A stretch of 15,569 bases of DNA from positions 1 through 15,569 of the forward strand of contig JBHGAY010000050.1 of assembly GCA_041946735.1 (NCBI GenBank). The letters run 5' to 3'. Shown piece by piece: positions 2,913 through 7,871 of the stretch (within the stretch, counting starts at the first letter, position 1; every line of letters starts with the position of its first letter). The DNA comes from Candidatus Eiseniibacteriota bacterium. GTDB taxonomy: Bacteria; Eisenbacteria; RBG-16-71-46; CAIMUX01; VGJL01. The notes under the pieces were generated by a model that was not told the origin of the DNA, made no database searches, and was given only the letters and a program-made list of their open reading frames with translations. Position numbers and translations under genes: made by a program.

Positions 2913-2990
2913 AAGCGGCGAGGAGGCTGGCATCCGTGCGGGCCCCCCCCGCGGCCCGGAGCGGCTCAGCTCGAGCCGGTCGCGCTTCGA

Positions 2991-3039
2991 GAAAGGGAAA
3001 GCGCCCGGCGAACCTTGCGCGAAGAGGTTCGCCGGGCGC
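2991..3039 (-). terminator. Intrinsic terminator of the minus-strand diiron gene (possibly bidirectional)
   Basis: Perfect 15-bp inverted repeat GCGCCCGGCGAACCT (3001-3015) / AGGTTCGCCGGGCGC (3025-3039); followed on the minus strand by TTTCCCTTTC; lies between convergent genes. Confidence 0.8.
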
Positions 3040-3065
3040 GGAGCGGCCTTCCGAGGCGCGCAGGA

Positions 3066-3974
3066 TCAGGAGAACGCGGGGGCGATCTCCTCGATGCGCG
3101 CGCGAGCCGAAGGCCGGATCTTCCCGAGCGTCTCGAGGAAGACCGGGTGGGTCATCCCCGTGCCGAGGTAGGTCCAGCGGACGGCCCGGACCTGCGCCTC
3201 CTGATACTGCATACGCTCGTCATCGTGCAGCTCGCGTCCCGTCGCCTCGCGGAACGCCTCGAGGTTCATCGCGACCTGCTGCTGCAAGCCGCCGTCGAGC
3301 ATCGTCCCGATCTCGAGATACCCGTCGACTGCCGCGTCGATCTGCTCGGGCGTCCTCGAGTCGGCGAGCGCCTCGACCATGAGCACGTCCATCTTCGCGT
3401 GCTGCGCCTCCTCCATCCAGTGATGCTGGAGGAGGCTCTTGAACTGCGGATCGAGATCCTGGTTGTCCTTCATGCAATCGAGGTAGTGGCGCTGCGTCAT
3501 CCACTCGATGTGGAGGGTCACGAGGGCCACCGACAGCGGATCATGGGACAGCACCGCGTTGGCGATCGCGTCGGCCGGTCCGATGACGGGGCAGCGGACG
3601 CCGAAACCTGCCGCGAACTCCTCGGAGAAGCGATGGAAGAGCTGGATGTGCTTCGCCTCGTCGCTCGCGAAGCGCAGGAGCGCGCGCGCCCGGTCGTCGT
3701 CGCCGCTCAGATTCGGTCGCGCATGATCGAGGACGAACGGAAGGATGAACTCCTCCACGAGCCCGAAGATGTAGAGGTACTCGTTGCCGCGAATCTGGTT
3801 GAGCACGAGGCGCTCGGCGGGCGAGAGGAACGTGAGAGGCTCGACTCCGGCGAGCGCCTCGGGGAGAAAGGGCTTCGAGAAATCGAGACGATTGTCGCCG
3901 CCGATCAGGTCTTCGACCTTCCAGGAGATCTTCTCGGACGCGCTCAGGATCGCGCCGTAGCTGTACGTGGACAT
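3066..3974 (-). CDS. Ferritin-like diiron protein, AurF (N-oxygenase)-like, 302 aa
   Basis: Start reassigned to ATG 3974 (MSTYSY), with GGAGG SD about 9 nt upstream; diiron ligand pattern VEE ... DEAKH ... HIE ... HWMEEAQH. Confidence 0.8.
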   Translation of the reverse strand: MSTYSYGAILSASEKISWKVEDLIGGDNRLDFSKPFLPEALAGVEPLTFLSPAERLVLNQIRGNEYLYIFGLVEEFILPFVLDHARPNLSGDDDRARALLRFASDEAKHIQLFHRFSEEFAAGFGVRCPVIGPADAIANAVLSHDPLSVALVTLHIEWMTQRHYLDCMKDNQDLDPQFKSLLQHHWMEEAQHAKMDVLMVEALADSRTPEQIDAAVDGYLEIGTMLDGGLQQQVAMNLEAFREATGRELHDDERMQYQEAQVRAVRWTYLGTGMTHPVFLETLGKIRPSARARIEEIAPAFS

Positions 3975-5649: not shown

Positions 5650-6291
5650 ATGCGGATCGGAATTCTCGGAACCGGCGAGGTCGGCAAGACGATTGCGAAG
5701 GGGCTTGCGGGCCGCGGACACGAGGTCCGGATCGGCTCTCGAGATGTCCGCAAGCTCGACGACTGGCTTCCCGAAGCGGGCCCGCGGGTGCAGGCAGCGA
5801 GCTTCGCCGATGCGGCATCGTTCGCCGAGGTCGCGATTCTCGCGACCCTCTGGAGCGGCACCGAGAACGCGCTCCGCCTCGCCGGGCACGAGAACCTCGC
5901 GGGCAAGGTCGTGATCGACACGACGAATCCGCTCGTCTTCCACTCCGACGGCCCGCCGACCCTCGCGCTCGGCTTCGACGACTCGGCGGGCGAGCAGGTG
6001 CAGCGGTGGCTGCCGGCGTCCCGCGTGGTCAAGTGCTTCAACATTACCGGCAACCGGAACATGGTCGATCCGACGTTCCCGGACGGGCAGCCGGACATGT
6101 GGATCTGCGGCAACGACTCGGCCGCGAAAGAGACGGTCTCCGGCATCTGCCGCGAGCTCGGATGGCCGCCGGTCGTCGATTGCGGCGGGATCGAGGGAGC
6201 GAGACTGCTCGAGCCGCTCGCGATGCTCTGGATCGACTACGGCATCCGCCACGGGAGCTGGACGCACGCGTTCAAGCTGCTGCGTAAGTGA
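5650..6291 (+). CDS. NAD(P)-binding oxidoreductase, F420_oxidored family (NADPH-dependent F420 reductase-like)
   Basis: AGGAGAGGAG SD; Rossmann GILGTGEVG; family motifs KVVIDTTNP, SAGEQVQ, VVKCFN, CGND, ARLLEP. Confidence 0.85.
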   Translation: MRIGILGTGEVGKTIAKGLAGRGHEVRIGSRDVRKLDDWLPEAGPRVQAASFADAASFAEVAILATLWSGTENALRLAGHENLAGKVVIDTTNPLVFHSDGPPTLALGFDDSAGEQVQRWLPASRVVKCFNITGNRNMVDPTFPDGQPDMWICGNDSAAKETVSGICRELGWPPVVDCGGIEGARLLEPLAMLWIDYGIRHGSWTHAFKLLRK

Positions 6292-6398
6292 GCGTCCGAG
6301 AGCGAGCAGCCCGAGGATCGTACGGTGAGATTCGGGCGCGGGTTTCCAGGTTCCTGCACGTTTACGATCGAGATTGTTTGGGAGCGGCACATCGCGGC

Positions 6399-6407
6399 TG
6401 CTACGAT
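6399..6407 (+). promoter_or_regulatory. Extended -10 promoter candidate for the leader-carbonic anhydrase transcript
   Basis: TGcTACGAT; predicts a start at about 6414-6415, only 3-4 nt before ATG 6418. Confidence 0.55.
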
Positions 6408-6417
6408 CCGACTCACG

Positions 6418-6495
6418 ATGCAACCCGATCCGCGGCACTTCTCCTGTTGTTGTTGTCCTCGGTCCGACAGGATCGAGGGCGGAGCGGGCTCGTGA
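6418..6495 (+). CDS. Putative polycysteine leader peptide [25 protein letters not shown] (25 aa)
   Basis: ATG 6418 to TGA 6493-6495; four consecutive TGT codons at 6445-6456; no SD, directly downstream of an extended -10; overlaps alternative RNA pairings. Confidence 0.65.
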
Positions 6496-6533
6496 TGGAA
6501 ACCCCCTGACGAAGGGGAATCTATGGAATCAGC

Positions 6534-6567
6534 GAGACCCACCGCCCCACCGGCGGTGGGTTTTCTG
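6534..6567 (+). terminator. Attenuator-type intrinsic terminator in the carbonic anhydrase 5' leader
   Basis: Stem CCCACCGCC (6538-6546) / GGCGGTGGG (6552-6560), loop CCACC, followed by TTTTCTG; about 240 nt after the upstream stop and about 70 nt before ATG 6638. Confidence 0.7.
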
Positions 6568-6637
6568 CATGCGGTCGGCGGGCTCGAGCGAGCCTCGGCT
6601 GTCGAGGAGCCCGGCGGCCCGGAGAGAGGAGACGGAG

Positions 6638-7219
6638 ATGAGCAAGGTCCTCGAAGAGGTTCTTCAGGCGAACACGGTCTATGTCGAGCAGTTCGGCGAA
6701 CGTGGCAACCTCGCGATGCCTCCGGCGAGGAAGATCGCAATCTTGACGTGCATGGATGCCCGCCTAGACCCGGCGAAGTATGCCGGTCTGGCCGAGGGGG
6801 ACGCCCACGTGATCCGCAACGCCGGCGGACGGGCGAGCGACGATGCGATCCGCTCGCTCGTGATCTCGCACAAGCTGCTCGGCACGCGGGAGTGGTTCGT
6901 GATCCATCACACCGGATGCGGAATGACGCTCTTCACCGAGGAGGTGATGGGAGAGCTGCTGGCGGAGAGCCTCGCGACCGCGACATTCGACGGGAAGGAG
7001 TGGAGGAACACACACAACGGCGGCGGATCGCCCGAGGGACGCTACATCCATTGGCTGACGATCGCCGACCAGAACCGGGCGGTCGTCGAGGACATCACGC
7101 GGATTCGCGAGCATCCTCTCGTTCCGGCAGACATTGCGATCCACGGGTTCCTCTATGACGTGCGGACCGGAAGGCTGCAGGCGGTTCCGGGAGCGGCGGA
7201 AGCAGGCCGGCCGGTCTAG
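6638..7219 (+). CDS. Beta-class carbonic anhydrase, clade D (Rv1284-like; clade includes COS/CS2 hydrolases), 193 aa
   Basis: Start reassigned to ATG 6638 after a GAGGAG SD; Zn ligands CMDAR (CxDxR) and HHTGCG (HxxC); [16 protein letters not shown]. Confidence 0.9.
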
Positions 7220-7346: not shown

Positions 7347-7871
7347 ATGAAGCAGATGCCCTGGATCGAGCGGCGTTTCGATTTCGGCAAGCCTCCCTCG
7401 CTGTTCCCCGGGCTCATCGAACGATTGCGTGGGACCCCGGCGCGCGTGGAGGACCGGGTGCGGCGATTTCCGCCCGCGGTGCTTCGCGCGCGAGAAGGGA
7501 CGACCTGGTCGGTTCAGGAGAACGTGGGGCATCTGATCGAGGTCGAAAGCCTGTGGTTTCGGCGGCTCGATGACTATGCCGCGGGACGCGAGATGCTCCG
7601 GGCCGCGGATATGGAGAACCGGTCGACGAAGCAAGCGAGCTACAACGACCGGGAGATCGGCGAGATACTCTCCGGTTTCCGCGACATCCGCCGGAGGCTC
7701 GTCGAGCGGCTCGAAGCGCTCGACGATGCCGCGATCGAACGGTCGTCCCACCATCCGCGGCTGAACCGGCCGATGCGGGTGATCGACATGGTGGAGTTTG
7801 TGGCCGAGCACGACGACCACCACCTCGTGCGGATCTCGGAACTGATCCGCGCATTCGGAGCCGCCGAGTAG
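7347..7871 (+). CDS. DinB-superfamily (DinB_2/YfiT-like) metalloprotein, 174 aa
   Basis: GAGGAGG SD before ATG 7347; WSVQENVGHL and HDDHHL His-triad motifs. Confidence 0.85.
   Translation: MKQMPWIERRFDFGKPPSLFPGLIERLRGTPARVEDRVRRFPPAVLRAREGTTWSVQENVGHLIEVESLWFRRLDDYAAGREMLRAADMENRSTKQASYNDREIGEILSGFRDIRRRLVERLEALDDAAIERSSHHPRLNRPMRVIDMVEFVAEHDDHHLVRISELIRAFGAAE

Follow-up and report, generated by a model that had tools for sequence, protein, structure and literature searches.

A poly-cysteine leader peptide followed by an intrinsic terminator as a probable attenuator of a beta-carbonic anhydrase gene in Eisenbacteria

Why should a gene annotated as a carbonic anhydrase be preceded by a short open reading frame (sORF) with a run of cysteine codons and, between the two, what looks like an intrinsic terminator? 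The question is raised by a 15,569-nt stretch of DNA from a Candidatus Eiseniibacteriota bacterium, referred to below as the window, which is a complete 15.6-kb contig of a 4.89-Mb metagenome-assembled genome (G000, 94.8% complete). Here a 346-nt spacer separates a gene for an F420-type oxidoreductase (5650-6291) from the gene for a beta-carbonic anhydrase (CA; 6638-7219), and the spacer (6292-6637) has no codon-position GC bias (0.65/0.62/0.67). We propose that it carries a ribosome-mediated leader-peptide transcription attenuator, which would sense cysteine by way of charged tRNA-Cys and control the CA, an enzyme of clade D. Judged from sequence comparison and folding, we put the probability of this reading at about 0.8.

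The components of the putative attenuator are collected in Table 1. The first-pass annotation of the window had pointed to an extended -10 box (TGcTACGAT) and an SD-less (lacking a Shine-Dalgarno sequence) open reading frame (ORF) with four TGT codons, all of which can be read in the sequence. No purine-rich SD is found in the 10 nt preceding the sORF ATG, and the -10-like box stops 10 nt short of that ATG (6418); a consensus promoter scan returned no site, the two hexamers together giving only 8 of 12 matches. The earlier remark that TGT is not the usual local Cys codon also holds genome-wide. Within 1885 long ORFs of G000 with high GC content at third codon positions (GC3), TGT accounts for 811 of 9984 Cys codons (8.1%), which makes a run of four out of four unusual (0.081^4, or about 4e-5, by random draw).

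Directly after the Cys run, the minimum free energy (MFE) structure has the hairpin that had been annotated there, and its 5' arm would be covered by a ribosome held on the Cys codons. The strand further on, segment 2, is predicted to be the 5' strand of an antiterminator and has an alternative partner at 6414-6427. In the full-length MFE structure these bases pair with 6484-6494, so that the pairing proposed at first pass (6414-6433 with 6479-6494) is recovered only in part. The terminator hairpin, which had likewise been noted together with its TTTTCT tail, is found both by terminator scan and by folding (-19.2 kcal/mol) and is the sole terminator-like site on the plus strand between 5600 and 7600. 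The region as a whole (6410-6570, 161 nt) folds at -77.1 kcal/mol against -58.5 +/- 4.3 kcal/mol in 200 shuffles (z = -4.33; 0/200 equal). Contigs from three DNA sequencing runs show zero differences from the window over 6250-6750.

Table 1. Features of the putative attenuator and of the genes behind it (window coordinates)
Feature	Position	Strand	Details	Basis
Promoter-like site	6378..6407	+	weak -35 TTGGGA 6378-6383, 18-nt spacer, extended -10 TGcTACGAT 6399-6407	
Leader peptide sORF	6418..6495	+	25 codons, ATG 6418, UGA 6493-6495	read from sequence
Putative sensor	6445..6456	+	four consecutive Cys codons, all TGT, codons 10-13 of 25	read from sequence
Hairpin directly 3' of Cys run	6455..6480	+	6455-6465 with 6470-6480	MFE
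Predicted antiterminator 5' strand (segment 2)	6477..6496	+	last six sense codons and stop of sORF	folding
Small hairpin inside antiterminator helix	6503..6517	+	CCCCC-UGACG-AAGGGG region	folding
Predicted antiterminator 3' strand	6528..6547	+	overlaps terminator 5' arm	folding
Intrinsic terminator	6538..6566	+	CCCACCGCC 6538-6546, loop CCACC, GGCGGUGGG 6552-6560, then UUUUCU (UUUU 6561-6564)	terminator scan, folding
Cab-type (clade D) beta-carbonic anhydrase	6638..7219	+	193 aa, SD GGAGAGAGGAGA upstream	Pfam Pro_CA
DinB_2 family gene	7347..7871	+	127 nt 3' of CA	Pfam DinB_2, E 7.9e-19

Are these parts kept as a set in related genomes? The leader has no alignable DNA in relatives: a DNA search with it in 60 of them gave no homologue, and a single 40-nt match at chance level (E 6e-4) lay outside the sORF. 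The comparison was therefore led by the CA protein, in a set of 206 species genomes of the phylum (G labels, with L labels for individual loci and W for the window leader), and the leaders are not alignable for covariation. A CA orthologue at E <= 1e-40 is present in 6 of the 206 genomes, and a close group with 68-69% identity comprises four, namely G000, G003 and G004 from the window's family and G136 from another. In all four an sORF containing 3-4 Cys codons in a row lies upstream of the CA gene, and behind it come a GC-rich hairpin and T-run; the sORF is 25-34 codons long and lies 110-200 nt 5' of the CA start. The Cys run, on whose presence in homologous leaders the first-pass annotation had made its reading depend, is thus retained in 4/4. 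The peptides of the three relatives are MLNLTHRTHNVLYGNSLGACCCRRGCAGGRTPSI, MDLILYHLACCCCVDVDRREEVRAMGGDRFR and ..LARFAPCACCCRVSHGTTRPIGVERGVT. What the four CA leaders have in common is limited to an ORF, its Cys run and a terminator; the rest of the peptide, its length and the stem sequences vary. The three leaders found through the protein, and not through a Cys pattern, use TGT for 10 of their 12 Cys codons. At one of these loci (L004) the upstream gene is divergent, and the terminator there cannot therefore belong to it.

Outside this close group the leader of the CA gene is not found. The more distant CAs of the phylum (56-57% identity; G009, G017) have no such leader upstream. The enzyme is very widespread in other phyla, with 63-73% identity in Proteobacteria, Binatia, Bryobacterales and others, and a run of at least three TGY codons occurs upstream in one of the best 80 genome loci (L063, in a frame without a start) and in one of the best 80 metagenome loci (TGCTGCTGC, in a long frame), both of which we regard as noise. 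A looser rule, an sORF with at least 3 Cys in 6 residues, scored 6 of 154 loci in the forward direction and 4 of 154 in the reverse-complement control; as these scores are nearly equal, the CA leader is not a general feature, and a convincing poly-Cys leader with terminator was found at 0 of these 154 CA loci from other phyla. G000 itself contains 366 runs of at least three TGY codons on its two strands (2 x 4.89 Mb), a base rate of about 1% per 250 nt. Of these runs 46 fall outside long high-GC3 frames, and a scan of that genome found an sORF and a terminator only with the run in the window.

The most telling evidence for a cysteine reading of the run comes from the genes behind similar leaders elsewhere in the phylum. 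A scan of the 206 genomes for TGTTGTTGY, 80-110 nt and TTTT gave matches in 68 genomes, and 20 intergenic-looking regions picked by eye from about 150 listed matches hold 21 runs. Eight of these runs lie in an sORF with a start codon (18-31 codons, 3-7 consecutive Cys). Behind this sORF come a terminator hairpin of -17.9 to -30.6 kcal/mol, which extends up to the T-run, and a gene in the same direction. The remaining 13 were not counted, nine lying in longer frames or lacking a start or clean terminator and four being ambiguous (L209, L213, L214, L217). All eight counted leaders precede genes of sulfur assimilation or cysteine synthesis, with Pfam matches for 12 of the 13 proteins. Their targets are ATP sulfurylase with sulfite reductase (G013), ATP sulfurylase (G021), sirohaem synthase (G025, G021), a CysK-type PALP enzyme with serine acetyltransferase (G045), a PALP enzyme with a rhodanese (G151) and, in G104 and G166, an ATP-grasp-like protein for which only the RimK model scores above cut-off, followed by a luciferase-like monooxygenase. 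That eight of eight targets belong to sulfur or cysteine metabolism argues that the ribosome decodes the run as Cys and that the leader monitors the supply of cysteine. That the parts of the element are present, that they are conserved together and that they are associated with sulfur genes are direct observations. Poly-Cys leaders, on the pattern of these putative targets, mark a cysteine/sulfur regulon in the phylum that is patchy in occurrence. The first-pass annotation knew of no Cys attenuator on a carbonic anhydrase or in this lineage. Our literature search likewise turned up no report of a carbonic anhydrase under Cys attenuation, nor of an attenuator of any kind in Eisenbacteria; within the lineage the window leader does not stand alone, being one of a wider set of candidate Cys attenuators.

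One locus, L201 (contig C47 of G021), holds two poly-Cys leaders with terminators, at 353-500 and 2918-3100, 2.5 kb apart. They precede the sirohaem synthase and ATP sulfurylase genes, and the second has seven consecutive Cys codons (MTFSSRYSCCCCCCCPTGRAGHGVVIGDLDR). At L204 and L205 (G104, G166) the conserved gene after the leader has weak ATP-grasp similarity and the N-terminus ..YYEHPDWFRPLF.., with the luciferase-like monooxygenase gene lying 3' of it in L205; this gene could possibly encode a cysteine- or sulfur-related ligase of a new kind.

How might such a leader act? When the RNA is cut before the terminator 3' arm, the MFE structure is the antiterminator, and it contains the 13 Watson-Crick pairs between segment 2 and the terminator arm that had been proposed at first pass: GGGCGG 6477-6482 with CCGCCC 6542-6547, GGG 6486-6488 with CCC 6538-6540 and CUCG 6489-6492 with CGAG 6533-6536, the helix being extended by pairing of 6493-6496 with 6528-6531. 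The stop codon of the window sORF falls inside this antiterminator strand. We modelled the ribosome as 28 masked nucleotides with its A site either on a Cys codon or on the UGA. With the ribosome on Cys, the 5' arm of the terminator has a probability of 0.84-0.89 of being paired upstream, and with the ribosome on UGA one of 0.39-0.41, which agrees with the stall and stop logic that had been suggested for the window. With the ribosome on the last Cys codon, the same sequestration of the arm is reached by 7 of 300 shuffles for the window, 23 of 300 for L004 and 18 of 300 for L005.

Leader-peptide attenuation is textbook biology, and its classical transcriptional mechanism was reportedly described by Yanofsky in 1981. 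Applied to the window, transcription would start at or just before AUG 6418, and a ribosome would translate the 25-codon sORF. With ample Cys-tRNA, the ribosome would pass the four UGU codons, reach UGA 6493 and cover segment 2 (6477-6496), whereupon the terminator (6538-6560) would form and RNA polymerase would stop at the U-run. With scarce Cys-tRNA, the ribosome would stall on 6445-6456 and mask the hairpin arm 6455-6465 and part of 6414-6433, with which segment 2 could otherwise pair; segment 2, left free, would pair with 6528-6547, no terminator would form and transcription would enter the CA gene. That transcription starts there, that the sORF is translated, that the ribosome stalls and that cysteine decides the outcome are all predictions from the sequence.

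Several results weigh against this scheme. At equilibrium the full-length leader always forms the terminator, whichever part is masked; any switch must therefore act during transcription, that is kinetically, and this is why the RNA was folded as cut before the terminator 3' arm. The duplex between the 3' part of the sORF and the terminator arm is marginal in the window, 52 of 1000 dinucleotide shuffles being as good, and in the relatives it is good at L004 (8 of 1000 as good) and absent at L005 (526 of 1000). We applied the stall-versus-stop model to 12 leaders, those of the CA genes (W, L004, L005, L168) and the eight counted above (L199, L200, L201a, L201b, L202, L204, L205, L206). The expected contrast appears in six (W, L168, L199, L200, L201a, L206), is nil in three (L004, L005, L201b) and is reversed in three (L202, L204, L205). 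The stop codon in L004 and L005 lies 16-38 nt past the antiterminator strand, which a ribosome at the stop would therefore leave exposed; in these two the 5' end of the sORF may, on the folding model, act as the competing partner. The regulon has its own difficulties besides the choice of regions by eye. Viewed from the gene side, a poly-Cys run lies within 1500 nt upstream (<=1500 nt) in only 2 of the 29 ATP-sulfurylase loci of the phylum, and neither the cysE-cysK pair of G000 nor its second cysK has a poly-Cys leader. The parts are conserved across leaders, and their exact choreography is beyond what folding alone establishes.

An alternative for which these failures speak is that the Cys sORF senses cysteine but acts through occlusion of the translation start, Rho or mRNA stability, the hairpin and U-run being a constitutive partial stop or a processing site. 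In favour of this are the six of 12 leaders in which the equilibrium model fails, the lack of overlap between stop codon and antiterminator strand at L004 and L005, and, in the available text of bioRxiv 10.1101/834739, the fact that the sole poly-Cys sORFs studied by experiment act on translation. Set against these, a canonical GC-rich hairpin with an immediate T-run lies between sORF and gene in 12 of 12 leaders, and segment 2 overlaps the terminator arm by 13 pairs. Moreover, the CA start and its SD lie 70 nt past the terminator, and the SD region (6621-6637, GGAGAGAGGAGACGGAG) has no complement to UGUUGUUGUUGU nor, unlike in the mycobacterial sORFs, to the UGU run. We consider this alternative unlikely, and keep transcription attenuation as the preferred mechanism.

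A second alternative, which seems to us somewhat less probable still, is that the sORF is a chance frame within a structured non-coding RNA (a small RNA, a riboswitch-like element or the 3' end of the F420-type oxidoreductase gene) and that the U/G-rich run is an RNA motif. High-GC genomes are rich in open frames, the structure of the leader is strong by itself (z as above), and in its other frames TGT TGT TGT gives GUU or UUG repeats, the GTT frame being open from 6374 into the CA gene. However, the N-terminal extension that this frame would add to the CA is not conserved in orthologues, which start MSK or MSA, and has no GC3 signal. A start codon is in frame with the Cys reading in 4/4 CA leaders and in 8/8 others, with a stop within 5-18 codons after the run. 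TGC replaces TGT at some positions with Cys kept (L005, L168, L200, L201b), an interchange by which the first-pass annotation had suggested that the frame could be fixed. A non-coding RNA also finds no co-directional gene upstream at L004, leaves the link to sulfur genes unexplained and has no Rfam match: a scan of 5900-7000 at E <= 10 gave only ar14 (E 1.9, 16.3 bits against a gathering score of 58.8).

Immediately behind the Cys run, five of the 12 leaders have a Pro codon (CCCP) and four an Arg codon (CCCR), which may reflect GC-rich composition only or may add to stalling. This recurrence, together with the ability of four adjacent thiols to bind zinc in front of a gene for a zinc enzyme, might suggest that the sORF encodes a Cys-rich micropeptide with a function of its own, such as a helper that binds metal or sulfur, but this is very improbable, since nothing outside the Cys run is conserved in the four CA leaders, the same kind of sORF precedes unrelated enzymes, P and R are common anyway in GC-rich frames, and a terminator between sORF and gene argues for control and not for co-expression.

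The transcript that would carry the attenuator probably begins at the sORF itself. By eye, six of the 12 leaders (W, L004, L005, L201a, L204, L205) have TTGnnn, a gap of 17-18 nt and TAnnnT (CAGAAT in L201a) with no SD, and these promoter boxes end 6-10 nt before the start codon. L168, L200 and L202 have instead an SD-like GGAGG or GGAGA, and the remaining three are ambiguous. From this promoter spacing it is likely that the window mRNA is leaderless or begins only a few bases before the sORF. Three copies of the 7-mer TACGATC are present in the whole window, at 6316-6322 (minus strand), 6363-6369 and 6402-6408 (both plus strand), all within 93 nt just 5' of the sORF, the last copy being the -10-like box. 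With 1.39 copies expected per window and three reached in 31 of 200 shuffles, it is their clustering that is notable, and the cluster might mark a second promoter or the operator of an additional control by a protein.

The published systems with which we compare this leader are described as in the portions of the cited papers that were available. The classical leader-peptide attenuators of amino-acid operons include trpL, hisL, thrL, leuL and pheL (bioRxiv 10.1101/834739). The window element resembles them in its run of codons for the amino acid that would be sensed, the predicted mutual exclusion of antiterminator and terminator, its stop codon within the predicted antiterminator strand and the position of the terminator before the first gene. 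It differs in apparently sensing cysteine, in being apparently leaderless without an SD, in its uncultured lineage and in its target, a single gene of the CA family and not a biosynthetic operon. Closest in the sORF itself are the leaderless poly-Cys sORFs of mycobacteria (Ms5788A, Rv2334A and others; Canestrari et al. 2020, bioRxiv 10.1101/834739), which act on translation and have no terminator. Both have consecutive Cys codons and several loci that make up a cysteine regulon, and the window leader would also share their leaderless-type start and their control in cis by cysteine supply. In mycobacteria, however, it is the 3' end of the sORF that carries the Cys tract, which pairs with the SD of the gene behind, whereas the run in the window lies mid-ORF and a terminator follows. 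In the available text of that preprint, Table 1 aside, 'carbonic' and 'anhydrase' have 0 occurrences.

The predicted uORFC-8-2 of Rhodobacterales, a Cys upstream ORF with an intrinsic terminator before cysS (Brewer et al. 2021, PMC8632094), is similar in its tandem Cys codons followed by a terminator and in being read as ribosome-mediated attenuation; both are predictions. Its Cys codons are two in number (mostly UGC; positions 14-15, within the first stem), and its occurrence is limited to cysS in a single order of alphaproteobacteria. The leaders of the present phylum, in contrast, have 3-7 mostly UGU codons, no sequence relation to it, and CA and sulfur-assimilation genes as targets. Candidate Cys leader peptides before cys operons and cbs in actinobacteria (Seliverstov et al. 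2005, PMC1262725) are, like the window leader, short ORFs with Cys runs, but an explicit terminator is present only in the latter.

What, then, is the enzyme that would be controlled in this way? It matches Pfam PF00484 (Pro_CA) with E 3.7e-12 and 47.2 bits against a cut-off of 25.7, and its zinc ligands C38, H91 and C94, together with D40 and R42, are invariant in 5 of 5 orthologues. Its nearest solved relatives are, in order, 5ztp and 3las (CAs), 6jqc (fungal CafC), 1ylk (Rv1284), 3vqj and 3ten. The clade D label is transferred from PMC12035519 (which covers CafC, Rv1284 and carbonyl sulfide (COS) hydrolases) and not from a tree. With the COS hydrolase of Thiobacillus thioparus (3vqj; E 2.1e-29), fungal clade D COS hydrolases and the carbon disulfide (CS2) hydrolase 3ten (E 1.7e-24), the CA shares the Cab-type fold family and the zinc site; what sets it apart is that the solved structures nearest to it are two annotated as plain CAs (5ztp, 3las) and Rv1284, an active CA. 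An insert of about 20 residues (about 117-139), present also in close orthologues, does not align to 5ztp or 3las, and a comparison of residues 96-193 with solved structures aligned only past the insert and gave no informative match. An N-terminally extended CA, read from the frame open from 6374, was rejected, the orthologues beginning at the same Met. The surroundings of the CA gene in other phyla are varied. Thirteen of 80 CA loci there have a divergent LysR-type gene beside the CA (L022, L029, L030, L038, L043, L045, L046, L056, L062, L069, L071, L074, L076), seven of the 13 with a NUDIX hydrolase gene downstream, and those of the 13 that were checked are of Methylococcales type. From this arrangement, LysR-flanked CAs represent a different, apparently protein-based control of the same enzyme.

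A sulfur role would account for control by cysteine, because H2S derived from COS would feed CysK directly. The CA would, like the targets of the eight other leaders, serve the supply of cysteine only if it yields sulfide from COS or CS2. According to the available parts of the papers, fungal clade D enzymes are COS hydrolases used in sulfur assimilation (PMC12035519), Trichoderma takes up COS sulfur for assimilation through such an enzyme (PMC10880591), and soil uptake of atmospheric COS is ascribed to such enzymes (PMC6330096, PMC8209446). G000 carries cysE and cysK, and no match was found in it to PF01077 (sulfite/nitrite reductase), PF01507 (PAPS (phosphoadenosine phosphosulfate) reductase/CysD) or PF01747 (ATP sulfurylase), searches that each matched 5 to 14 of 14 control genomes; neither PF01077 nor PF01747, the two families searched for there, was matched in G003, G004 or G136. 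The genomes compared in this way are incomplete and related.

Three points tell against such a role. Clade D includes true CAs as well as COS and CS2 hydrolases, and no sequence or tunnel feature discriminates between them; the tunnel residues and the additional loop of 3vqj both fail to tell COS hydrolases from CAs (PMC12035519, as far as its available text goes). ATP sulfurylase is present in only 28 of the 206 phylum genomes and in 0 of 5 in the window's family, so that its lack is not specific to carriers of the CA. Finally, among 145 frames flanking the 80 CA loci in other phyla, sulfur-related neighbours occur in 4 (a rhodanese, a Cys/Met enzyme dependent on pyridoxal phosphate (PLP), TauE and TauD), which is too weak to support or reject a sulfur role. 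Because a gene predicted to be under Cys control is related to COS/CS2 hydrolases in a genome with no detectable sulfate reduction, we suggest, at a second remove from the data, that the physiological job of the CA is probably the release of sulfide for cysteine synthesis and not the handling of CO2. That the 'carbonic anhydrase' is really a COS (or CS2) hydrolase, and so a sulfide route induced by cysteine starvation, is a tentative proposal to which we give somewhat less than an even chance.

The DinB_2 gene behind the CA is possibly co-transcribed with it, there being no terminator-like site between the two, and this neighbour is not conserved beside the CA, other genes lying there at L004, L005 and L168. 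Elsewhere in the window, 367-1773 encodes a cytochrome bd subunit I-like protein with a C-terminal cytochrome c domain (Cyt_bd_oxida_I and Cytochrome_CBB3). Aragorn found 47 tRNAs in G000, including tRNA-SeC(tca), and no tRNA-Cys, tRNA-Ile or tRNA-Ala(tgc); the missing ones probably sit in unassembled parts of the genome.

Cysteine attenuation has been shown by experiment only in its translational form, in mycobacteria, and the terminator-based form predicted here would cover a sulfur regulon in an uncultured and poorly studied phylum. What is new is its target, a carbonic anhydrase, and a regulator that reads cysteine supply would assign a physiological role to a gene annotated only by that name. 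If the proposal of COS hydrolysis is true, the sole gene of G000 under a cysteine-sensing attenuator would be one that harvests a trace atmospheric sulfur gas, and the leader signature could separate sulfur-scavenging clade D enzymes from true CAs, which is impossible by sequence alone. A clade D enzyme controlled by cysteine, in bacteria of soil and waste sites without sulfate reduction, would then offer a testable case of COS as a bacterial source of sulfur.

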